Shown here: piece after piece, positions 36,621 to 51,486 of the stretch
How the letters are laid out: each line of letters opens with the position of its first letter
Numbering within the stretch: position 1 is the stretch's first letter
From: Escherichia phage vB_EcoM_PiR
Sequence record: OM313461
DNA: 52,936 nucleotides
Direction: 5' to 3' (one strand)
Notes under the pieces: model-generated
What the model was told of the DNA's origin: nothing
Databases searched by the model: none
Seen by the model: the letters and a program-made list of their open reading frames with translations, nothing else
Translations under genes and position numbers: made by a program

Positions 36621-37505
36621 TTATTTGCTGGTTTCTTTCTCAGCTTGAGCGGCTTTCTTCGCCATCCAGGCTTGGTGCTTCTCTTTCGATTCGTCCGAAC
36701 CGATTTTAGTGAGCTGCACGTTTGGGTCGTCGTTCTGCATCTGTTCTGCAGCTCGACCTGTCAGGAGCAGGTAGCTGTCTGACTCCGGATGATAATACCA
36801 CAGCTGGTAAGGATGATAGCCTTGTAGCTTATCATAAATCCAGCCCAGATCTGCAGGTTCACGTGCATCCAGTTCACGGCCTGGTGCGTTACGGCACTTA
36901 GCTTCCCATTGATAGTCAGGTTGTGTCTGAATATAGCGCTCGCTGTTACCATTGGCATCAGGTGCAGTCATACGTAAAGCAAGCACCGCATCCATAAGGT
37001 ACGGTAACTGTTTAGGTAACTGCTGACCAGGCATAAGAGGTGAGTACAACATTGCACCAGTAACCTCGTCCTTGTTCTTCTCAAGCTTGCACAGGTATGC
37101 AACGCTGAAAGGCAAGTCACGGAACTGACGCATGATATACATCATCTTGTCGTTGGTATTACCATACGCCTGTCGTTTGTCATTAACCTGTGACTTCTCG
37201 TAGTCCAGACAAACTTCAGCAACATCTGATAGTGAGTCGAAAATCAGATGCTCATACTTCTGCGCATCCTTACTTTCGGTAAGCCATTTGTACAGCGCCA
37301 GAATGTCGTTGAACGTATTGATTGGCGTAGAGTCGATGTCAGCGTCTGCAATTGACATCAAACCGCCTTCGGCATTAATGACAAGAACCTTGTCATGAGG
37401 CAAGGTCTTAGCCAGGGTGGTTTTACCAACACCTGATGCGCCGTAAATAGCGACCTTAGGTCGCTTATTTTCTACGGCTTGTTTAGTAGATACAATCTGA
37501 ACCAT
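36621..37505 (-). CDS. AAA_24 (Sak4-like) RecA-fold ATPase
   Basis: Walker A YGASGVGKTT followed by VLVINAEGG, typical of Sak4-type recombination ATPases. Confidence 0.65.
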   Translation of the reverse strand: MVQIVSTKQAVENKRPKVAIYGASGVGKTTLAKTLPHDKVLVINAEGGLMSIADADIDSTPINTFNDILALYKWLTESKDAQKYEHLIFDSLSDVAEVCLDYEKSQVNDKRQAYGNTNDKMMYIMRQFRDLPFSVAYLCKLEKNKDEVTGAMLYSPLMPGQQLPKQLPYLMDAVLALRMTAPDANGNSERYIQTQPDYQWEAKCRNAPGRELDAREPADLGWIYDKLQGYHPYQLWYYHPESDSYLLLTGRAAEQMQNDDPNVQLTKIGSDESKEKHQAWMAKKAAQAEKETSK

Positions 37506-37735
37506 TAATGATAGTCCTCGTAAAGTGATTCTTCATCGCAGTACATACGATAAAGAGCTTCTTCGGCTTCTTCCAGGGTGTCAAACTCCTCGCCACAGAC
37601 GGAGTATTTTGTGGGTTCATCGAATGACTCGACGATGTGCCAGTCATGATGAATACCGTATGTCCACAAGTCGCAGTCATCTTTTGCAACAAGCTTACGT
37701 GTGGAACGAAATTGTGCTAGAGTATTGATGCTCAT
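37505..37735 (-). CDS. hypothetical small acidic protein
   Basis: start re-assigned to ATG 37735 with GAGGAGAGAGAAT spacer; track start is GTG. Confidence 0.5.
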   Translation of the reverse strand: MSINTLAQFRSTRKLVAKDDCDLWTYGIHHDWHIVESFDEPTKYSVCGEEFDTLEEAEEALYRMYCDEESLYEDYH

Positions 37736-41943: not shown

Positions 41944-44452
41944 TATTCTCGGTCTGAAATACTTTAAGCCAGAAGGGATTCCCCAAGTCTTCAAAGATAT
42001 GAAGCGCTGGGCTATCTTTGAGCTGACGTACGAAGACGAGACTCTCGAAGTTCAATCCAAACCTAAGAAACCTGCAAGAGCGCCATCAGGCCGTTCCTTC
42101 AGCACAACTGTGCCTGAAGAGTGGATGACTTTCGACGACGCCCTGTCACGTTGTATTCGCAATCGTGAAATGAAGATTAAAGCTGTACAGGGGAATATCA
42201 CCTTTGTGCCGGCTTTGGTTGTTCCTCGCCAGTGGTACTTTGTTGACCTGGACAACCATGAAGATAACCCAGACATTGAAGCTACCCACAAAGCGATAAT
42301 TGAAGGGACTCGTGGTGCTTATGCCGAGACGTCAATCTCTGGCAAAGGGCAACACATTGCAATCCCTTTACCCTGGACTGCAGCAACATCTAAAGAGAAA
42401 GACGAACAACTGGACATCAAAATCCAGAAGGCTGAGATGTTCCTGGTAATGACAGGCAATGTATTGAGTGAGTTCAATGCTAATCCTGTTTCAGCCCGTG
42501 AATGGCATGCAGCAATTGAGAAGTTCTTTCTTGAATCAAGCGCACCTGATATTGATGTTGAGTTTGAGCAAGACGAAGACCGTGGCGAAGAGTATGACAA
42601 AGAGCTGTACGAACAGCTAGCCGACAATACTCGCTGGGCGCTTGAGCACTATCTTAGCGACTACGCACCAGACGGTGTTGGTGTGAGTAATGACGGTTCT
42701 GAACGTTTAAGCCGTATCTTAAAAGACTTGCTTCGTGTAACCCGTAACTATGAAGTTACACAACGCATCTTCATGGCCAGCAAAGCTGCAGCATACGAAG
42801 GTCGTCGTGCAAGTCGACATAGTTTGTCTGTTGACAAGTACCATCAGTGGTTCAGTCGTGTTGGTAAGACTGTGCTGAAAGAGATGCAACGTGATGGCTT
42901 ATTCGTCAAGACCAAGTTTGCTCTTGACATCAACAAAGAGTTAACCAAGAATTCTGGGGTGTCACTGGCTGAGAACGTTGAGTTCAAAGTCAACGACGAT
43001 ATTCTGCCATCTGACGTATTTGTCAGAACGGCCCCGTCCGGGTTTAAACGGCTTATTGCTGAGATACAGGATAACATATCTCCGGCTAACAGGGTTAACG
43101 ACTATGCAATTGGCACAGCTCTTAACATCCTGAGCAACTGCGCCGGTCGTAAGTATGTTTGTCCAGTAGGCGGTCATGCTAACTTCCTGGTAACCAACAT
43201 CATTCTTGTGGGTGGTTCATCAATCGGTAAATCGTTGTATACCGAGATGTTCCCACAAATCCAGGCAAGTTTACCTGACACATCGCCTATCAGCCTTAAT
43301 CGGATTCCAAGGGAACAGACTTTTGCAACCAGGACGTTCGCTGAACTGATGGCTAACCCGTCATACCATTCAGTCCAGTTGTTCTACCCTGAATTTGGTC
43401 TGGCTTTAGGTTCTGGCTTACGCATGAATCCTAACAACCCTGACAACTTTCAGAAAGCTCTGATGGACGCTTCAACCAAGCGTAAGGTTGGCGGTATACT
43501 GACAGGTATCAAACGTGCTAATGCTGACAATGATGTCAAGACAGTAAGCGAACCATGCTACTCTATCCTGGGGGACTCAACTCAAGAGCTTATCCTTGAC
43601 AACACCCGGAAGCAAGACTTCTCAAGTGGCTTTTTGCCCCGCTTCCTGTTCATCCCGAACTATGAGCGAGCGGAGTTTGCCAAACCTGAGAAGGTAGGAC
43701 GTCGCCAGCAGATTCGCCGTACTCAATTCTCCAAAGAGCTGATTGAGAAACTGGAAGCAATCGCTTATGTGAATGCTATCCCGCCTAACGGTAAACTAAG
43801 GCACGACCCGATTCCTATTTACGACGAATCGGATGATGATGACTTCCTGTACGAATACCAGTGCAATATTAATGATATGCGCCAGTATTACAGGGATAAC
43901 GAAGTAGCATCTGCCTTTGTGGGCCGAATGGGCGAGTATGTATTCAATATAGCAGCACTGATTGGACTACTCGATAACTGGGATGCTCCTGTTATGACCA
44001 GGGACAACATCGAATGGGCTTACAAATATGTTCTTCGTTGTATAACCGCCTGGGTCAATAACACAAGCAGGATAGTCGCACCACCAACTACCAACGCCGA
44101 AGTAGTGGACGGCTTCCTAAAAGTCTACAGGGACATTTTGGCCCTTTACACCAAAAGAGGATGGTCTGGCATTGTCAAGCATTATCCCGAAGGTGTTGTA
44201 AGAAGTATCCGGGAAGAACACCTCCAGATGAATGGTTTAAGCATATATGCTATTCGTCAGTCTTTGAGCTGGTTTAAATCGAATTACGGTTTTAACATCA
44301 CAGCTAATAACAAAGTCATTGACGGTATGCTCCAGGATATGATTGACCAGGACTATTTAGCAGTACAAGTATATAAGCCCACAAGAGGCCGATCTGCTAA
44401 CATTTACTGCCTGACGGAGCGAGGATATGACACTGCTAAGAAGTTAAAATAA
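41918..44452 (+). CDS. DNA primase (primase-polymerase-type) fused to SF3/D5-like helicase
   Basis: N-terminal WYFVDLDNHED acidic motif (DxD-type); central Walker A VGGSSIGKS; 844 aa. Confidence 0.6.
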   Translation: MTMTSQPSDILGLKYFKPEGIPQVFKDMKRWAIFELTYEDETLEVQSKPKKPARAPSGRSFSTTVPEEWMTFDDALSRCIRNREMKIKAVQGNITFVPALVVPRQWYFVDLDNHEDNPDIEATHKAIIEGTRGAYAETSISGKGQHIAIPLPWTAATSKEKDEQLDIKIQKAEMFLVMTGNVLSEFNANPVSAREWHAAIEKFFLESSAPDIDVEFEQDEDRGEEYDKELYEQLADNTRWALEHYLSDYAPDGVGVSNDGSERLSRILKDLLRVTRNYEVTQRIFMASKAAAYEGRRASRHSLSVDKYHQWFSRVGKTVLKEMQRDGLFVKTKFALDINKELTKNSGVSLAENVEFKVNDDILPSDVFVRTAPSGFKRLIAEIQDNISPANRVNDYAIGTALNILSNCAGRKYVCPVGGHANFLVTNIILVGGSSIGKSLYTEMFPQIQASLPDTSPISLNRIPREQTFATRTFAELMANPSYHSVQLFYPEFGLALGSGLRMNPNNPDNFQKALMDASTKRKVGGILTGIKRANADNDVKTVSEPCYSILGDSTQELILDNTRKQDFSSGFLPRFLFIPNYERAEFAKPEKVGRRQQIRRTQFSKELIEKLEAIAYVNAIPPNGKLRHDPIPIYDESDDDDFLYEYQCNINDMRQYYRDNEVASAFVGRMGEYVFNIAALIGLLDNWDAPVMTRDNIEWAYKYVLRCITAWVNNTSRIVAPPTTNAEVVDGFLKVYRDILALYTKRGWSGIVKHYPEGVVRSIREEHLQMNGLSIYAIRQSLSWFKSNYGFNITANNKVIDGMLQDMIDQDYLAVQVYKPTRGRSANIYCLTERGYDTAKKLK

Positions 44453-44463
44453 GTAAGTAAATC

Positions 44464-44505
44464 AAGGGCTTGGGTAATTGTAAAAATCCTAAGCCCTTAT
44501 TTTTT
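44464..44505 (+). terminator. rho-independent terminator
   Basis: 11-bp stem AAGGGCTTGGG/CCTAAGCCCTT (one G-U), 13-nt loop, then ATTTTTT. Confidence 0.65.
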
Positions 44506-44619
44506 AAGCTTATTTTACAAACTGATTAATATTTAAACTATAATTAAATATATGGGCTCTAAGAGTATGATTTTATTACTCTTTTACAAATCATAATATA
44601 TGAGCTCCTTATAAAAGAT

Positions 44620-44835
44620 TAAGGGGGTAAAAAAGGGGGATACAAGAACCGGATAAAGGGGGTATATATTTATTTATTATTATTATTATTATTATATATT
44701 ATTAATTATATTAGAAGTAATAAAAACAGCTACTTAGAGGCGTCTATATGTATGATCCGGTTTATCTCTTTATTAATATCAGAACCGGATGAAAAAAATT
44801 TACGCTGGTGAAAAAAATAAAAAAGCCGGATTGAT
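44620..44835. repeat. AT-rich iteron cluster (putative replication origin)
   Basis: three AAGGGGG(T/A) copies (44620-44665), ACCGGAT-type motif four times in both orientations (44647, 44753, 44782, 44825), (ATT)n microsatellite 44671-44695. Confidence 0.5.
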
Positions 44836-44852
44836 AAATAAATCTGTAGACG

Positions 44853-44881
44853 TTTACACTGTAAAAAAGATGTGCTACAAT
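44853..44881 (+). promoter_or_regulatory. sigma70-like promoter TTTACA-N17-TACAAT with extended -10 TG
   Basis: -35 44853-44858, TGCTACAAT at 44873-44881. Confidence 0.6.
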
Positions 44882-44935
44882 ATTTATCAATGTTGCTGAT
44901 TACCAAAACTTTGAATTGTATACGAGGCTGAATAA

Positions 44936-45367
44936 ATGGTTAATATAAGACAGAAAGGACAGAACTTTGAGCGTAAAATGGCTAAGAAGTTTAATAGCTC
45001 GTTCGGATTAACTGTTGAGCGCAATCTTCAACAGTCTATTAATGGCGGGGATGACTTGTTGGGTGTGCCGTTTTTCAGCGTTGAACTGAAGAAGCACAAG
45101 ACCAAGTCTATCGGAACATGGTGGAGACAGTGTGCGGCATCGGCAAAGGCTCAGAACAAGATGCCAGTGCTTATATACGAACTACCAAGAAAACAGCCTA
45201 CCGTGGTGATGAATAAGGCTGATGTGATTGACTGTTTTCCAAGTGGCACGACTTTTAACGAGGCATCGAACCGCCTCTTTGTGGGTTTAGTAGAATTAAC
45301 ATGGGAACAATTTTGCCGGGTCTACAACTATTACGTTGCGCCCGGCACTCAATATCACGTCAATTAA
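44936..45367 (+). CDS. hypothetical protein, possibly a small nuclease/resolvase-like protein
   Basis: 143 aa basic protein with GAGG SD; function guess is weak. Confidence 0.5.
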   Translation: MVNIRQKGQNFERKMAKKFNSSFGLTVERNLQQSINGGDDLLGVPFFSVELKKHKTKSIGTWWRQCAASAKAQNKMPVLIYELPRKQPTVVMNKADVIDCFPSGTTFNEASNRLFVGLVELTWEQFCRVYNYYVAPGTQYHVN

Positions 45368-45549
45368 TCTTGTTTCAGCTCGTCACAAATGACATGCTGA
45401 TTTTTGGCAGGGATAATACCAAGATTTAGTAAGGTGTATGGACTATCGGCGACACATTGTTCAACGGTAGTCCATTCAGGTTTGGATTCAACAATTTTGT
45501 AACTACAATCATGAGTAGCCACACATGTTGCCAGGATTAAGCCAATCAC
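45364..45549 (-). CDS. small protein with hydrophobic N-terminus (GTG start)
   Basis: GTG 45549 preceded by AAGGTGA and overlapping upstream TGA (GTGA). Confidence 0.45.
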   Translation of the reverse strand: MIGLILATCVATHDCSYKIVESKPEWTTVEQCVADSPYTLLNLGIIPAKNQHVICDELKQD

Positions 45550-45686
45550 AAGTAATCACCTTCAACCAGGAACTCAAACAATTGGTTGTAAACGTTGCAA
45601 CCTTTAGCGAAAGAGCTTTCAGCAGGTTTACCATCGCGGACGATCATCATATACTCACCGCCATGGATGTCCACCCAGTATTGCAT
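45546..45686 (-). CDS. small ORF (46 aa), not in track
   Basis: ATG 45686 just after AGGTGG; stop overlaps GTG start of next gene; fills gap in tightly packed early operon. Confidence 0.35.
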   Translation of the reverse strand: MQYWVDIHGGEYMMIVRDGKPAESSFAKGCNVYNQLFEFLVEGDYL

Positions 45687-45724
45687 GCCACCTTTGACCG
45701 GATTACGTTGTAAGAATTTAAACA

Positions 45725-45970
45725 TTATTTGCTCCTGATTCCAAGTTTATTCAATAGCCACACTGTCATGTCAACCCAGGTTAACGGTACAGTTTTCGGG
45801 GGTTGATAATCCCAGCAGCTTGCAGTTCTTTGTATTTCTGCTTGGCGCCGCTCCGCTTCGCGTAATACCGCATCGTCAGAAGTGCCGGCAGAAAAAAGAT
45901 CGGTAACACCAGATAAATCGCGTTGATTAACACGTCGAGCAATGTCATATAAATCTTCCTTAGAAAGCAT
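45725..45970 (-). CDS. hypothetical protein
   Basis: 81-aa ORF with ATG start. Confidence 0.5.
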   Translation of the reverse strand: MLSKEDLYDIARRVNQRDLSGVTDLFSAGTSDDAVLREAERRQAEIQRTASCWDYQPPKTVPLTWVDMTVWLLNKLGIRSK

Positions 45971-46085
45971 AAGTTAATACCATAATAATTACCAGAAAAA
46001 CCGCTACCAGTTTACTCATGTACCGGCCTTCAGCATATGCAGGATTCACAACAGAATACTCAACAACATGTTTACGGCGGACCAT
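45960..46085 (-). CDS. small hydrophobic peptide ORF (41 aa), not in track
   Basis: ATG 46085 preceded by GGAGG; C-terminal LVAVFLVIIMVLTYAF transmembrane-like segment. Confidence 0.35.
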   Translation of the reverse strand: MVRRKHVVEYSVVNPAYAEGRYMSKLVAVFLVIIMVLTYAF

Positions 46086-46197
46086 AAGGCCTCCACTTGT
46101 GGGTTAATTCAAGCATGAGGACTTTCATCAAATCCTCAGGATTGAATTAATTACCAGCTTTTAATCAAGCCCTGTCAGCGCCAGGACTTGAAAAAGA

Positions 46198-46398
46198 TCA
46201 CTCAATCATTATCTGTACTACTATTATACACTCTTTATTGAAGCGGGTAAACACCTTTCCTCCATTTGTGCGTTTAGCCCCAGATTTTAGAGCTGACTGG
46301 CACCAGACATTCCATTCCTCAACTGTCAAGAATTTTTGCTCAGCTTTGGGTGGTAGTCCATTGGCAAGGTCTACCGTAGTAAATTTGACTAGTGGCAT
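46198..46398 (-). CDS. hypothetical protein
   Basis: TAATG overlap with upstream gene. Confidence 0.5.
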   Translation of the reverse strand: MPLVKFTTVDLANGLPPKAEQKFLTVEEWNVWCQSALKSGAKRTNGGKVFTRFNKECIIVVQIMIE

Positions 46399-46787
46399 TA
46401 CTTGACCTCAAATTTTGACTCGTCATATTCCGGATCAGTCACGTCCCGGGTAGCACAATTTTTGATTGCCTCCCAGTAACGTTGGGCATCATCGCCATCG
46501 ACATAAACTGTCCAGTGGCCGTAACCACCTTCAAATCTGTCCCAGGCTTGTTCCCAGACTTTGCCATCTTCCAGCTTGTACCAAGTTGGACGACTGTCAA
46601 ACTCGCGGATTGGATGGTACCCCAATAAAGGATTCATGATGTCAATAATGTCTGCCCTGCCAATCTCCTGGTTTTCCCACAAGATTGTCATGAATTGCTC
46701 AAACTTAAAAGCGTTTGGCAGAACTTTGATGACTTCACCATCACAATATACGGTATAGGTGCCATCTTCGCATTTTGCACTGTACAT
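46398..46787 (-). CDS. hypothetical early protein
   Basis: start re-assigned to ATG 46787 with AGGAGAGAGAAAC spacer. Confidence 0.55.
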   Translation of the reverse strand: MYSAKCEDGTYTVYCDGEVIKVLPNAFKFEQFMTILWENQEIGRADIIDIMNPLLGYHPIREFDSRPTWYKLEDGKVWEQAWDRFEGGYGHWTVYVDGDDAQRYWEAIKNCATRDVTDPEYDESKFEVK

Positions 46788-46855
46788 GTTTCTCTCTCCT
46801 ATTGATATAATTTCAATCATGAACTATCACAACTTTGGATAGTTCATTGTTGAAA

Positions 46856-47029
46856 TTATACTAACTTTGTTACAATCTGAATTGTCAGCCGGAAGTCTTC
46901 CATCAAGTTATCAAACTCTTTGGAACCACCAACCGCATCAGCTATTTGATCTTTCACAATTTGGGCATTTGATTCCAGTAATTCAATCAGGTGCGCCAAT
47001 TCGTCTTCAGTCAATTTCAGGTCTTTCAT
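46856..47029 (-). CDS. small early protein, paralog family member 1
   Basis: ATG 47029 (GGTGGA SD, ATGA overlap); N-terminus MKDLKLTEDELAHLIELLE resembles 47289-47447 and 48144-48317. Confidence 0.55.
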   Translation of the reverse strand: MKDLKLTEDELAHLIELLESNAQIVKDQIADAVGGSKEFDNLMEDFRLTIQIVTKLV

Positions 47030-47283
47030 AATGTATCCACCCAAGCCATAACTTTTGCCAGTCTTACAACGTCTTCATGGTCCCGCTCGCCATCAGAAAA
47101 TTCGCTGGCGATGATACCCATAATTGACGCCAGATTCATGTTGATGATGTAGGCGTGTTGGCGCACTTCATCAATTCCTGAATCTATCACCAGTTCCGCA
47201 AATTCCTGCGAACCTTCATCCCATTCAGCCCAATACTGCTCGGCATAAAAGTCCAGTTCTTTTTTCATCTCAATGTCAGTCAT
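47026..47283 (-). CDS. small highly acidic protein
   Basis: GAGGAG SD; strongly acidic composition. Confidence 0.55.
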   Translation of the reverse strand: MTDIEMKKELDFYAEQYWAEWDEGSQEFAELVIDSGIDEVRQHAYIINMNLASIMGIIASEFSDGERDHEDVVRLAKVMAWVDTL

Positions 47284-47288
47284 TTTGA

Positions 47289-47447
47289 TTACTCCTCAGA
47301 ACTTGAAAATTTGTCATCAATGGACTCAACAATATAATCAAGAGTTGAAGTGTGAGAACTATCAGAAAAAGTGCCCATCTTCTCCAGCTCAATCATCATA
47401 TCCCGTAAAGCCATTGCCTGGTCTTTGGTCAGTTTAATTTTAAGCAT
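47289..47447 (-). CDS. small early protein, paralog family member 2
   Basis: ATG 47447 after CAGGAGAGAAAC; N-terminus MLKIKLTKDQAMALRDMMIELE. Confidence 0.55.
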   Translation of the reverse strand: MLKIKLTKDQAMALRDMMIELEKMGTFSDSSHTSTLDYIVESIDDKFSSSEE

Positions 47448-47511
47448 GTTTCTCTCCTGTTGATTGTGAATAATTTCAATTGATGGCACTACTTGAGTGC
47501 CATCTCAAAAA

Positions 47512-48048
47512 TTACTCTTCAGTTTCTTGGGTTTCAGGTTTTTGACCAGTTACTGACTTGCCATCAGTCACTTTACCAGATTTTACATCATTCCGGTAGT
47601 ATGACATATATGACTGGATAACTCTTTTGGCTTTGATGTCATCCGCCTCCATCCCACAGGCTTTCATGGCATCAACTAGGGCCAGTTTGGAATCTTCTTT
47701 ATCCATCAGGTTGTAATCTTTGAACACCAGATAACAAGTATCTTTTGTTGATGGACCAGATGACTTCCGGGCCCCACCATTGGAAGATCTTGATGCCACA
47801 ACTTTGACCTCTTCAACTTCCAGTTGGTTCAGTTCATCAAACAATGCCTTGACCAACACTTCTTTGGAGTCCTTGACACTTACAGTACTTTCATCATTAA
47901 GGGACTTAATCATCTTAATGATCTGGTTGTTGGCAAAGTACTGAAGACTATCCATCTGCACTACAATAGTCCCAAGACTTTCAGTAGTCAGACCAGATTT
48001 TACAGACTCAACAGAAAAGGCGGAAGTCAGGTAAACATAGTTAGTCAT
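47512..48048 (-). CDS. hypothetical early protein
   Basis: start re-assigned to ATG 48048 with GAGGA SD. Confidence 0.55.
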   Translation of the reverse strand: MTNYVYLTSAFSVESVKSGLTTESLGTIVVQMDSLQYFANNQIIKMIKSLNDESTVSVKDSKEVLVKALFDELNQLEVEEVKVVASRSSNGGARKSSGPSTKDTCYLVFKDYNLMDKEDSKLALVDAMKACGMEADDIKAKRVIQSYMSYYRNDVKSGKVTDGKSVTGQKPETQETEE

Positions 48049-48143
48049 TGATGTATCCTCATTGATAGAATTTTTGATAAGTGTCAATCCTTGACAAGTA
48101 AGTCCAATCATGAGGACTTTTACCAAGTCCCCATTGTTGGAAA

Positions 48144-48317
48144 TTACTTCAACTTATCCAGAATTGATTGGAGTAACTTGACCCTCACTTCCTGGTCTTT
48201 GACATCCCTTCCACTCTCCCTGTCATATTCCAACAGGTCACTTTCCATAAATAAAGTAGTGTCCAATTGGTCAACCAATAATTCCAGTTCTTCTTGGGAC
48301 AATTCTAAAACTTTCAT
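48144..48317 (-). CDS. small early protein, paralog family member 3
   Basis: ATG 48317 after CAGGAG; N-terminus MKVLELSQEELELLVDQLD. Confidence 0.55.
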   Translation of the reverse strand: MKVLELSQEELELLVDQLDTTLFMESDLLEYDRESGRDVKDQEVRVKLLQSILDKLK

Positions 48318-48321
48318 CTTA

Positions 48322-48468
48322 TTACTCCTGATATTTAATAACTTGGGATTGGATAAAGTCAACACAATCTTCCACATCCATTGACTCAAAGTCTGGAACT
48401 GGACCATTGTTTATATTGACACACCAAAGCCCTTCATTGGTATCATACCAAAGTGTGTAGTTGTCCAT
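48322..48468 (-). CDS. small early protein (first gene of AT-rich block)
   Basis: ATG 48468 after AGAGGTG; track start 48525 is GTG. Confidence 0.5.
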   Translation of the reverse strand: MDNYTLWYDTNEGLWCVNINNGPVPDFESMDVEDCVDFIQSQVIKYQE

Positions 48469-48834
48469 CTTAATAGTCACCTCTTGTACTAGTTTCCAGT
48501 TGTGACTACTGTTACCAATAGTCACTGGTTGAAACTATTACTAGTGTTACTATCAACAAGAAACATGTTACCAGATTGTTAAAGAGCAAAAGGTACCATT
48601 GACATCTACCAGATGTACCTGTTGACTGGTTAAGTACTACCTACCCAAATTAAACCATACTAATACCCTCCAGACCAGTTGACTGGTCACTTGGTCATCA
48701 CATTCAATAAATATATAATAGTCCAATCCCTCTTGATTGTACACCTTATATTTGTAAGTTTATGCAAGTTTTTAGAAATGATAATCACTTGCGATTGAGA
48801 GTGGTTCTCGTATGCTATTGATATAGTTTCGCAT

Positions 48835-49098
48835 GTAATTACTCAACTCAAAATGGTCGGCAGGGGTTATAATCACATAGGGGTGCCACTTAAAGGAGCC
48901 GGCGAAATTATTTATAAAAATATAATTTCAATCTGAAGTATAGACGCTTTGTGTTATAACGGCCGAAGTAGTTCATACGGTAATTGTATCAATCACAATA
49001 GTTACCAGCGTAATCATTTCAATCGAAATAGGTGCGGCGGGGGTAATTTCGCAAGGGTGCTACCCACCAGGAGTCAGCGGAATTTTTTTATTTTTTGG
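48835..49098. repeat. duplicated ~85-bp non-coding element (two full copies plus a partial copy)
   Basis: copy 1 48835-48915 and copy 2 49010-49098 share GTAAT...CAA..AAAT.GGT.CGGC.GGGG...AGGGTGC.AC...AGGAG.C.GCG.AATT-T-run; partial copy at 48979-49006. Confidence 0.5.
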
Positions 49099-49307
49099 TA
49101 TTTTTGCCTTATCAGGACCAATCATCATCAGATTGATACAATAGGAGCTAACCTTTTGCCTAACACAATAATAAGTGAAGCCCCTCTAAAATTTTTTTTT
49201 ATATTTTTCGGAAATTGTGTAGACACTCACTAAAAAGTGGTGTACTTTCTCTCCTCCACGCGCTATCATTAATGTGAATCATCAAACGGCCTCACGGTCT
49301 CCTACTT

Positions 49308-49805
49308 ATGGGTAACATTATGAAAATTGTTCAATTAGAGCCATATCCGCCTCAATTGGCTATCGTTTGCAGCGAAAAAGAGCACCAGGAGCTCCAAAAG
49401 CTGATGGATTTGCCTGATTTTGGCAACTGGAATGACCGGGAAACGCGTAATGCGTCTACTTTTACGTTCACTCGCGTTAACTATCCGTACCTGTTAATCG
49501 TCGTCGAACTGTACCACCCGGACGACCTGAAGTACAACACCATTTCCCACGAAGGCATTCACGTAATGTCGTCGCTGATGAACTATGTAGGGCTTAAATA
49601 CGACCCAGAAAACGATGAATGGTACGCATATCAGCACGATTTCATCGTAAATGCCATTTGTAAGGCCCATGATGAGTACCTGGAGCGCAAAAAAGCGCCA
49701 AAACATAAGCCAAAAATCGAAACAGGCAATCATCCTGTGATACTGCCACAAGACGTTATGAACTCGCTTTTGACTGACACTACTGGGGACTTTTTAGGTG
49801 ATTGA
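49308..49805 (+). CDS. HExxH-motif protein (putative metallopeptidase-like)
   Basis: 165 aa containing SHEGIHV. Confidence 0.45.
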   Translation: MGNIMKIVQLEPYPPQLAIVCSEKEHQELQKLMDLPDFGNWNDRETRNASTFTFTRVNYPYLLIVVELYHPDDLKYNTISHEGIHVMSSLMNYVGLKYDPENDEWYAYQHDFIVNAICKAHDEYLERKKAPKHKPKIETGNHPVILPQDVMNSLLTDTTGDFLGD

Positions 49806-50308: not shown

Positions 50309-50983
50309 ATGATAAACCTAATCTTTGCAATGGGCCAAAATGGGGAATTCGGGTTGTCCCCGGAGTTTATGAAGCATCAGGTGGACTCGTGTAAGACTAT
50401 GGAAGAGGTCCGTGCGCTTCCTAAGTCTGGTTTACCATGGAAGTGTCCGTCAGATATGCTCTTTTTCAGGACTATGACTAATTCAATTGCGTCAGAACCA
50501 GGCTATAATGCGTATCAGCAACTACGGGGACAGTTCCCAAGTGACCAGTTGCGAAACATGATAGCTGATGTAACGGTAAAAATGGTTGGGCATAGCGTAT
50601 TGTTAGCCGGTCGTAAAACGTTTATGACTATGAGTCTGCCTATGTCAGCCCACCGAATACTGCTGCCGGTATCTCGTCAGATTATGGCTTCAGAAGGCTA
50701 CAACAATATAGGTGAGTTGGCAGCAGCACTTGAAGACCGTGGTTCAGATGTTTGGATTGTTGGCGGTGCACAGTTAATACTTGCGGCTCTTGAAGAGCAT
50801 GCCAAAGGTACACTCCGTGTTGACAACATGTTTATCAGCACAATCAAAGAAGCAGGTCCAAGTGATATATTAATGGACCGTAGCAAATTAATGATGTACA
50901 TTGATAGCGACTTCACTTATAATGATGAATATGTTGATAACAAATCTGTGCTGATACAGCGTTACCGGAGTGTACAGCAATGA
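50309..50983 (+). CDS. dihydrofolate reductase (with internal insertion)
   Basis: start ATG 50309 (AAGGA SD); DHFR-like motifs MINLIFAMGQNGEFG, LPW, VGHSVLLAGRKTF, VWIVGGAQL. Confidence 0.65.
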   Translation: MINLIFAMGQNGEFGLSPEFMKHQVDSCKTMEEVRALPKSGLPWKCPSDMLFFRTMTNSIASEPGYNAYQQLRGQFPSDQLRNMIADVTVKMVGHSVLLAGRKTFMTMSLPMSAHRILLPVSRQIMASEGYNNIGELAAALEDRGSDVWIVGGAQLILAALEEHAKGTLRVDNMFISTIKEAGPSDILMDRSKLMMYIDSDFTYNDEYVDNKSVLIQRYRSVQQ

Positions 50984-51486
50984 ATATCATAGTTGAGGGA
51001 CCTGACAATGCTCGTAAATCTACACTTATTAAGTTCCTTGAACCTCATCTTGGCCGCAGCATTATTCATAATACTGTTGACAAAGATGCCGAATCGGTCA
51101 TGGCTAAACAGGCCAAAGAAAACGCGCTCGAAGGCAATAGTATTTACGACCGTAGCGCTGTTATATCTGAGTATATCTATTGCATGGTTCTTCAACGTAC
51201 GCCTGTCATCAATATTAATGTATCACATGTAGCAGATATGTGTGACAACGCCATCGTTATCTTTTGTATGCCGCCTATTGAAAAGGTACTGGCGACTACA
51301 AAAGAAGAGATGCCTGGTGTTGTGGAAAATCTTGAGGCGTTATACAACCAGTATGACAACCTCATTGACGAACTGGTTATGATGGGCAAGCAGTTCTTTA
51401 TTTACGACTGGACTGCTGAAGAAAATGGCCCAGAAGCAGTTCTCGAATACATCAACGAACGTATTAATAAGGAGTGGAACAAATGA
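50980..51486 (+). CDS. P-loop-like nucleotide kinase with degenerate Walker A (possible dNMP kinase)
   Basis: IVEGPDNARKSTL resembles thymidylate-kinase P-loop but second Gly replaced by Arg; ATGA overlap with DHFR stop. Confidence 0.35.
   Translation: MNIIVEGPDNARKSTLIKFLEPHLGRSIIHNTVDKDAESVMAKQAKENALEGNSIYDRSAVISEYIYCMVLQRTPVININVSHVADMCDNAIVIFCMPPIEKVLATTKEEMPGVVENLEALYNQYDNLIDELVMMGKQFFIYDWTAEENGPEAVLEYINERINKEWNK

Follow-up and report, generated by a model that had tools for sequence, protein, structure and literature searches.

Hairpin-separated cassettes of small genes in the inferred terminal repeat of Escherichia phage vB_EcoM_PiR

What is the role of a run of twelve small leftward genes in Escherichia phage vB_EcoM_PiR that are currently annotated only as 'hypothetical protein'? 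The 52,936-bp stretch of DNA analyzed here (the window; record OM313461) is a complete Rosemountvirus genome, that of a BP63-like myovirus of Salmonella and E. coli, and the genes occupy positions 45364–48468 (the block). A preliminary description of this DNA had presented the block as a compositionally distinct set of early genes for host takeover or anti-defence. Our analysis suggests, as a reading that we consider probable while leaving considerable room for doubt, that the block is a leftward operon in the direct terminal repeat (DTR) of the genome that is read by the host RNA polymerase, is separated by hairpins into cassettes and encodes early, host-directed products. The block is an accessory operon in the terminal repeat of a known phage genus, and is real but largely ordinary. 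The location in the repeat, the toxicity of one ortholog and the GC bias (the latter for the sister genus) are already published; what is added here are the hairpin-delimited cassettes, with evidence for selection on the sense strand, and a dual-frame toxic locus.

The preliminary description counted about 12 small genes on the minus strand, and all 12 open reading frames (ORFs), with products of 41–178 amino acids (aa), are intact exactly where it had placed them. Eleven correspond to JEP7_55 to JEP7_65 of Escherichia phage JEP7 (MT764207), with which the window is colinear base for base at identical length and coordinates (416 substitutions and zero indels in the 11.9 kb compared), while the twelfth, at 46198–46398, is annotated in relatives but not in JEP7. 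The substitutions relative to JEP7 are patchy, with none at 44000–44500 or 48000–48500 and many at 50500–51000. The genes are named g55, g56, g57, g58, g58b, g59, g60, g61, g62, g63, g64 and g65. Stop and start codons overlap as had been described (4-nt overlaps of the GTGA and ATGA type, 1-nt overlaps in TAATG and one overlap of 11 nt, with gaps of 4–5 nt), and the strong Shine–Dalgarno (SD) sequences are also present, a GGAG, GAGG or AGGAG core lying 4–11 nt 5' of the start in 10 of the 12 genes. Tight packing, however, is a property of gene groups and not of the block as a whole, in which four spacers of 64–112 nt make five groups. The block families are under purifying selection, with ratios of nonsynonymous to synonymous polymorphism (pN/pS) of 0.29–0.56 in 11 families, and the g63 ortholog of phage fHy-Eco03 has been detected by mass spectrometry (PMC8145870). 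Because of this selection, the SD cores and the mass spectrometric detection, we regard g55–g65 as real genes.

Location and expression of the operon

The placement of the repeat comes from relatives. The genome of vB_SalM_Sz is deposited with an exact repeat of 4263 bp, the ends of which map to window positions 44807 and 49075. In fHy-Eco03, a DTR of 3,699 bp was determined with PhageTerm; its layout is like that in the window, and it holds gp01, gp02 (resolvase-like), nine small genes on the reverse strand and ~600 bp without coding sequence (PMC8145870). Restriction mapping of the sister-genus phage S144 placed a physical genome end in the homologous gap (PMC7432712). By homology, the block of vB_EcoM_PiR would be the cargo of a DTR of ~4.27 kb, with two copies per packaged genome. 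The predicted repeat contains a PDDEXK/RusA-like gene, the 12-gene leftward operon, the promoter and ~330 bp upstream of the promoter.

Transcription of the block would start at a candidate sigma-70-type promoter (48743–48715) and would be carried out by the host RNA polymerase. The architecture of this site, a −35 and a −10 element at a distance of 17 nt, is kept in all 13 aligned genomes, including BP63 and KE26, in which the spacer sequence has been replaced. No RNA polymerase gene is annotated in the phage.

Several elements surround the candidate promoter. Between it and the first gene, g65, lies an unusually long leader of ~240 nt (48469–48707, minus strand), in which the blocks GCTCTTTAACAAT, ACATGTTT and TTTCAACCAGTGACTATTGG are invariant in 13 genomes and other parts are replaced in BP63, BEC1-17 and KE26. 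Upstream of the promoter (48751–49075, minus strand) are two direct repeats of ~100 bp, built as (GGCACCC...ACCCC(C)GCCG...), and tandem ACTTGCA boxes, conserved across genomes, abut the −35 element on its upstream side; the repeats and boxes may be binding sites for a regulator. A weak promoter-like site is also present ahead of g63 at 48097–48070 (TTGTCA, a 16-nt spacer and AAAAAT), where it overlaps a small hairpin described below, and the S144 record has a promoter annotated in the homologous spacer. There is possibly a second transcription start ahead of g63.

At both predicted repeat boundaries (44803–44830 and 49066–49100), CGCT/G is found beside long A/T runs, in inverted orientation. 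The left boundary reads TTACGCT/GGTGAAAAAAATAAAAAA and the right boundary, on the opposite strand, AAAAATAAAAAAATTCCGCT/GACTCC (the slash marks the boundary). This boundary sequence may be a terminase cutting motif. The left boundary (44806/44807) lies in a non-coding stretch of 27% GC (44453–44935), which carries a (TTA)n run (44674–44697), three GGGGG boxes (44623–44662) and the primase terminator hairpin, and which might contain an origin or a packaging signal; in several relatives it is occupied by an 'Ant' anti-repressor-like gene. The first gene to the right of the repeat (49308–49805, plus strand) belongs to phrog_1365, a family of unknown function, and in the S144 record is called a putative Ku/Gam-like protein. 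Should this label be right, a gene for the protection of DNA ends would lie beside the genome end.

Hairpins and cassettes

Comparison of 15 genomes of Rosemountvirus and Loughboroughvirus divides the operon into five cassettes: g65–g64, g63, g62–g61–g60, g59–g58b and g58–g57/X1–g56–g55, where X1 is a frame nested in g57. Wherever a spacer is at least 40 nt long, the units on either side of it differ among the genomes in presence or order. In fHy-Eco03, KE26 and KM, the g63 unit is relocated between g58b and g58, and hairpin H2 travels along with it. The g62–g61–g60 unit is missing from SPLA11 and emiel, and in yarpen and emiel g65–g64 is replaced by another gene. An extra unit, X2 (~100 aa), is found in S144, ZCSE2, brorfarstad, KE26 and KM. 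In brorfarstad and S144, the X2 gene sits between hairpins H4a and H4b, so the spacer that holds both of them in the window is an empty X2 site. Core genes in this comparison are g55, g58, g58b and g63; g60–g62, g64 and X2 are dispensable.

Each inter-cassette spacer opens with a two-part hairpin that starts at the stop codon of the preceding gene (Table 1). The lower stem is AU-rich, UAAUUUCAA pairing with UUGAAAUUA; above it come a 2x2 internal loop (CA opposite GA), an upper stem of variable sequence and 9–11 bp in length, and a terminal loop of 3–9 nt, for 15–23 pairs overall. The SD and ATG of the next gene are located 15–25 nt past the hairpin. The two-part hairpins H1, H2, H3 and H4b have z-scores from −5.7 to −8.75, and the best-formed of them, H3, has arms of 23 nt that are 91% complementary. 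Orthologous copies of H1 show compensatory stem changes. Across the genomes, 30 distinct copies with at least 14 unrelated upper-stem sequences share one common fold. The sense strand is the more stable in 30 of 32 hairpins, by a mean of 4.1 kcal/mol (difference −4.1 kcal/mol; Wilcoxon p = 1.4e-6, a guide only, as the copies are related to one another), and the hairpins contain 46 G.U pairs versus one A/C mismatch. The hairpin structure is selected on the mRNA (sense) strand, most simply as RNA. In the spacer ahead of g63 there is also a second, small conserved hairpin (48055–48096, minus strand; TGTCAA-GGA-TTGACA), with a compensatory change in BP63 and yarpen (TGCCAA...TTGGCG).

The hairpins would form in the mRNA, and their most likely function there is in processing and/or in stabilizing 3' ends. 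In the early transcript of phage T7, RNase III sites are irregular hairpins of ~20 bp with an internal loop that lie between the cistrons of a polycistronic mRNA. The hairpins described here resemble these sites in size, in the internal loop, in their position between cistrons and in that a hairpin would be left at the 3' end of the upstream message; they differ in that the 2x2 loop is symmetric and the upstream stop codon lies inside the stem. By this structural analogy, RNase III-type processing or stability signals are the most likely function. A role as intrinsic terminators was rejected, as the hairpins have no U tract and none was called by the terminator scan.

A raw genome-wide ranking by hairpin energy was uninformative, being dominated by GC-rich coding hairpins, and was replaced by an architecture-specific scan. 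The strict form of the motif has no further copies in the rest of the genome, in a scan that itself recovers only H3 and H4b of the block. When IMG/VR was scanned for an exact pattern of the conserved flanks of the hairpins, only genomes of this phage group and four chance hits came up, and no Rfam family scored above threshold.

The hairpins might instead act in DNA, as attC-like folded single-stranded recombination sites or as protein binding sites or cruciforms, and drive the exchange of cassettes. Their outer inverted repeats with a variable center and their location at the 3' ends of cassettes are attC-like, they coincide with the cassette boundaries, and a G.T asymmetry would fit one folded DNA strand. 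We consider this unlikely, however: no integrase or site-specific recombinase is annotated in the 72-gene genome, the variable spacing of the conserved arms argues against a dimeric operator and it is always the mRNA strand that folds. In addition, the single junction that could be resolved lies in the repeated SD-ATG flank outside the hairpin core, as in homologous recombination. This junction is in SPLA11, where 70 nt, up to and including AGGAGAGAAACATG, are identical to the g63–g62 spacer of the window and g59 follows directly; it is a precise deletion between repeated hairpin-SD-ATG flanks.

We propose that the repeated flanks (3' arm, SD and ATG) serve as recombination joints, through which cassettes would be gained, lost and reordered among relatives; this is what the SPLA11 deletion shows for one case, and as a general rule it would account for the others. 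A precedent is provided by the PeSL elements of T4-type phages, which have been proposed to mediate modular shuffling by recombination and are likewise repeated stem-loop motifs at indel boundaries among small accessory early genes (PMC2839356; PMC4122927). PeSLs, however, are composites of a terminator and a promoter, whereas here three of the four spacers are too short for a promoter, with only 15–25 nt, including the SD, after the hairpin. The hairpins are therefore not PeSLs in the strict sense, and only the spacer ahead of g63 fits a weak promoter-like site. The arrangement also recalls integron arrays in having hairpins at cassette ends, but differs from them in the lack of an annotated integrase or recombinase. 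As a tentative and rather doubtful extension, the terminal repeat could be a dedicated, recombinase-free cassette array for host-takeover and anti-defence genes, a counterpart of the integron, in which the hairpins serve both in mRNA, by making independent expression units, and in DNA, as swap joints between co-infecting phages, and in which the dual-frame X1/g57 locus, possibly joined by a −1 slip, adds a second coding layer.

Table 1 Positions of the operon genes, hairpins and associated features in the window
Feature	Position	Strand	Description
Inferred DTR	44807–49075		by homology; ~4.27 kb
PDDEXK/RusA-like gene	44936–45367	+	Pfam PDDEXK_15 match
g55	45364–45549	−	61 aa; GTG start; four conserved cysteines; last operon gene; phrog_32337
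g56	45546–45725	−	59 aa; phrog_34345; 100% identical to fHy-Eco03 Gp04
g57	45725–45970	−	81 aa; ortholog of fHy-Eco03 Gp05, 69% identity; no SD
X1	45781–45948	−	55-aa ORF nested in the +1 frame of g57; transmembrane helix and basic tail; own SD
g58	45960–46085	−	41 aa; C-terminal transmembrane helix; phrog_10979 'membrane protein'
H4b	46100–46154	−	hairpin in 112-nt spacer; z = −5.7
H4a	46155–46197	−	hairpin in 112-nt spacer, back to back with H4b; z = −3.7
g58b	46198–46398	−	66 aa; basic; phrog_35966; core, 15/15 genomes; pN/pS 0.35
g59	46398–46787	−	129 aa; acidic; phrog_37772; pN/pS 0.32
H3	46806–46860	−	best-formed hairpin; includes g60 stop; spacer 46788–46855; folding energy −23 kcal/mol, z = −8.75
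g60	46856–47029	−	57 aa; acidic predicted helical hairpin; g64 paralog
g61	47026–47283	−	85 aa; isoelectric point (pI) 4.10; net charge −14; 23.5% Asp/Glu; three predicted helices
g62	47289–47447	−	52 aa; acidic; pN/pS 0.35
H2	47468–47517	−	hairpin; includes g63 stop; spacer 47448–47511; folding energy −21 kcal/mol, z = −6.5
g63	47512–48048	−	178 aa; core, 15/15 genomes
H1	48097–48148	−	hairpin; includes g64 stop; 95-nt spacer 48049–48143; folding energy −23 kcal/mol, z = −6.3
g64	48144–48317	−	57 aa; 26% Asp+Glu, most acidic of the genome by fraction; g60 paralog
g65	48322–48468	−	48 aa; acidic, net charge −9; first operon gene; phrog_5461 (unknown function)
Candidate leftward promoter	48715–48743	−	TGTACA, 17-nt spacer, TATTAT; consensus scan

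Two frames at the toxic locus

A screen of the nine repeat-borne genes of fHy-Eco03 found Gp05, the ortholog of g57, to be alone in being clearly toxic to E. coli (PMC8145870). Gp10, the g60 ortholog, was mildly toxic in the plating assay only, with a ratio of 0.46, below the cut-off, and the other seven genes screened were not toxic (PMC8145870). The window reveals that this locus is open in two frames. The SD of the nested frame X1 directly follows the stop codon of g58, whereas g57 has no SD, and neither frame is interrupted in any of the 15 genomes. In the 5' half of the locus, selection follows the X1 frame (pN/pS of 0.41 versus 3.6 for the g57 frame), while in the tail past the X1 stop it follows the g57 frame (0.24 versus >1). 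X1 is annotated instead of g57 in BP63, birk, yarpen and S144.

The sequence AUCAACCCCCGAAAAC, a run of five C residues before a rare CGA codon, is invariant and would let tRNA-Pro re-pair in the −1 frame. The locus is either two overlapping genes or a site at which a −1 slip on the C run joins X1 to the g57 tail. No frameshift-stimulating RNA structure was found 3' of the run (z = −0.9). With X1 nested in g57, the toxicity published for Gp05 is not yet assignable to one product; the source paper mentions neither this frame nor a −1 slip (PMC8145870). The RecG-mimic idea put forward for Gp05 in that paper was not reproduced in our sequence search of the Protein Data Bank (PDB).

The locus 45725–45970 could be mis-annotated. 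The real product would then be X1, which a −1 slip might lengthen by the g57 tail, and the toxicity would be membrane damage by X1. We take this possibility seriously, while leaning against it. It would explain why X1 and not g57 has an SD, why the 5' half is constrained in the X1 frame and the tail in that of g57 and why the annotators of four relatives picked X1, and it is consistent with two frames open in every genome and an invariant AUCAACCCCCGAAAAC. Such invariance, however, is expected wherever two frames are constrained, and two overlapping genes fit equally well; moreover, no stimulatory structure lies downstream of the C run, and the sample is of 15 related genomes only.

Composition, gene products and host takeover

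The block had been called compositionally distinct on account of its AT-richness. The AT-richness is real but modest in size: the block has 41.1% GC versus 45.8% for the genome, which puts it in the lowest 7% of stretches of the same length. The mean GC per gene is 41.0% in the block and 46.1% in the other genes (Mann-Whitney p = 2.6e-5), and 44.6% in other genes of up to 130 aa (p = 0.007). The deficit sits at codon position 2 (30.6 versus 38.5%) and at position 1, and the difference in GC at position 3 (GC3) is not significant (41.4 versus 45.0%, p = 0.06). Calculation of GC and codon usage thus bears out the lower GC but not a foreign codon signature, and as the deficit is at positions 1 and 2 and not in GC3, the lower GC reflects amino-acid composition. 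High contents of Lys, Glu, Asp, Leu and Ile in the block proteins make their genes AT-richer. The strongly AT-rich DNA is in the non-coding flanks (27% GC at 44453–44935 and 37% at 48469–49307). A bias of this kind has been published for the homologous 'cluster E' of S144, with 38.6 versus 46.1% GC (PMC7432712).

That the block is a horizontally acquired foreign island, its genes being morons unrelated to the phage's own programme, was raised as a possibility for cluster E by the S144 authors (PMC7432712) and would agree with the significantly lower GC and with a gene content that is mosaic among relatives. We regard it as very unlikely. GC3 does not differ significantly from that of the rest of the genome, the deficit being confined to codon positions 1 and 2; g55, g58, g58b and g63 are kept across Rosemountvirus and Loughboroughvirus, as are the position, promoter and hairpins; and the block families are essentially confined to this phage group.

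BLASTP against fHy-Eco03 pairs gp03 with g55 (87% identity), gp04 with g56 (100%), gp05 with g57 (69%), gp06 with g58 (60%), gp07 with g63 (65%), gp08 with g58b (37%), gp09 with the C-terminal half of g59 (65%), gp10 with g60 (71%) and gp11 with g65 (41%); it finds no counterparts of g61, g62 or g64. Only the C-terminal 75 aa of g59 are carried by fHy-Eco03, KE26 and KM. The largest product, g63, has an N-terminal domain, which a linker rich in Ser, Gly and Lys connects to a C-terminal domain confidently predicted as three helices; its tail is acidic. The g65 gene is present in 13 of 15 genomes (pN/pS 0.45), the pN/pS of g64 is 0.43, and g61 is present in 11 of 15 genomes, being absent from fHy-Eco03, SPLA11, emiel and KE26. 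For the g58 ortholog, the S144 record gives a TMHMM transmembrane call. At the end of the operon, g55 converges on the PDDEXK/RusA-like gene with a 4-nt overlap; the idea that g55 is a lipoprotein was dropped, since only 8 residues precede the first cysteine and no upstream extension of the ORF is possible.

The preliminary description also proposed a family of three paralogs, of which two members stand. g60 and g64 are of equal length and align end to end, hhalign relates them with 82% probability over residues 1–30, and their N-termini are the top N-terminal pair of 2556 protein pairs of the genome (score 35 versus 23 for the next). In addition, the g64 of the BP63 type starts MKDLKLT, like g60. 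For the supposed third member, g62, we obtained no support, with an hhalign probability of 1%, profile E-values of 3–6 and BLASTP E-values of 0.15 and 1.0. A g60/g64 profile search of 5.8 billion proteins returned orthologs only.

The product of g61 is, as had been noted, strongly acidic (Table 1), and it was suggested to be a DNA mimic. The suggestion derives from this charge, and mimicry by g61 is at most a possibility. By acidic fraction the protein ranks third in the genome. A single-sequence AlphaFold2 model has three helices, one of them a hydrophobic central helix, at low confidence (mean predicted local distance difference test, pLDDT, of 62.5), and neither a Foldseek match to the model nor a PDB sequence match was found. 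The protein forms just 2 clusters among 5.8 billion sequences and is restricted to this phage group. In the region of the replication genes, which is outside the block, 37505–37735 (minus strand) encodes a 76-aa protein with a pI of 4.34 and a net charge of −13, which is as good or as poor a candidate for a DNA mimic as g61.

AbbA is a known DNA mimic, and a UniRef entry names one g64 ortholog 'Antirepressor AbbA'. The name was not reproducible, and homology of g60/g64 to AbbA was rejected: hhalign of the profile against AbbA (YkzF, PDB 2LZF) gave 0.6%, no Pfam or NCBIfam match appeared at E up to 10 and 2LZF was absent from the PDB profile search. A broader proposal is that g61, g60 and g64 are all DNA mimics, like Ocr, ArdA, AbbA or SPO1 Gp44, and that the middle cassettes form an anti-restriction or anti-defence unit. 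The three proteins are strongly acidic, their cassette is dispensable in some relatives, one ortholog bears the AbbA label, and the terminal host-takeover module of SPO1 encodes the DNA-mimic protein Gp44 (PMC8208478). We nevertheless judge the proposal improbable, given the failure of the AbbA label in profile tests, the lack of any Pfam, NCBIfam or PDB match, the low-confidence g61 model with its hydrophobic central helix and no fold match, and the comparably acidic small protein outside the block. Moreover, this phage group carries modified DNA that resists most restriction enzymes, which weakens the expectation of an anti-restriction protein (PMC8145870, PMC7432712).

Turning to the block as a whole, its proposed identification as an early module of the host-takeover type derives from the DTR location, the conserved sigma-70-type promoter, the mosaic accessory content and the toxic g57 ortholog. 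The products, which are small, acidic, helical or membrane proteins of this phage group, would probably modulate or commandeer host functions shortly after the DNA has entered the cell. The context thus fits the takeover half of what the preliminary description proposed, but no product matches an anti-defence protein; an anti-defence role of the dispensable cassettes is possible. Searches of Pfam, NCBIfam and PHROGs with the block products gave only families of unknown function or noise below threshold, and PDB sequence searches with g57, g59, g60 and g61 and with the profiles of g63 and of g60/g64 gave nothing significant. Resemblances of the N-terminal part of g63 to the colicin immunity protein Im7 (E = 0.37) and of g60/g64 to H. 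pylori HP0242 (E = 0.01–1) were taken as those of helical motifs.

Two well-studied modules have a similar setting. The pre-early region of T5 (bioRxiv 10.1101/866236; PMC10644984 for BF23) also consists of small genes, mostly of unknown function, in a long DTR; it is read by the host sigma-70 RNA polymerase, and the proteins it encodes act on the host ahead of the remaining programme. T5 differs in its ~10-kb repeat, two-step injection, injection-stop signal and A1/A2 genes, none of which is detectable here, and shares no sequence homology with the block. The host-takeover module of SPO1 (PMC6873191; PMC8208478) likewise has small early genes in the terminal redundancy, about two dozen of them, with strong early promoters and several toxic or host-inhibiting products, including the acidic mimic Gp44. 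SPO1, however, has a Gram-positive host, a redundancy of 13 kb and no homology to the block, and its functions have been demonstrated. The closest systems are the direct orthologs of the block, g03–g11 of fHy-Eco03 and cluster E of S144 (PMC8145870; PMC7432712), of which fHy-Eco03 lacks g61, g62 and g64. The papers on these phages make no mention of hairpins, of a cassette organization, of an X1 frame inside g57 or of paralogy between g60 and g64.

Several points weigh against an operon of early, host-directed genes. No product has a homology or fold match to a characterised takeover or anti-defence protein, and only one of the nine repeat-borne fHy-Eco03 genes is clearly toxic, at a locus that the nested X1 frame makes ambiguous. 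The g63 ortholog was found in virions, unlike what a purely intracellular early role predicts; the virion call is itself unspecific, having been made for 48 of 81 fHy-Eco03 proteins (PMC8145870). The DTR of vB_EcoM_PiR is placed by homology in a genome deposited as a circle, and 'early' derives from position and promoter type, as a literature search found no transcriptome for this phage group. The G.U asymmetry of the hairpins is also compatible with folding of sense-strand single-stranded DNA.

The only published phenotype for the block, the toxicity of Gp05, is affected by the nested X1 frame. The map of core and dispensable genes provides a short ordered list for knock-outs and defence-system screens, and cassettes could be engineered or swapped at the hairpins, which offer natural boundaries. 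Rosemountviruses are under development for biocontrol and therapy of Salmonella and E. coli, and the DTR location and host-type promoter point to the block as a likely seat of their host-range and takeover determinants.

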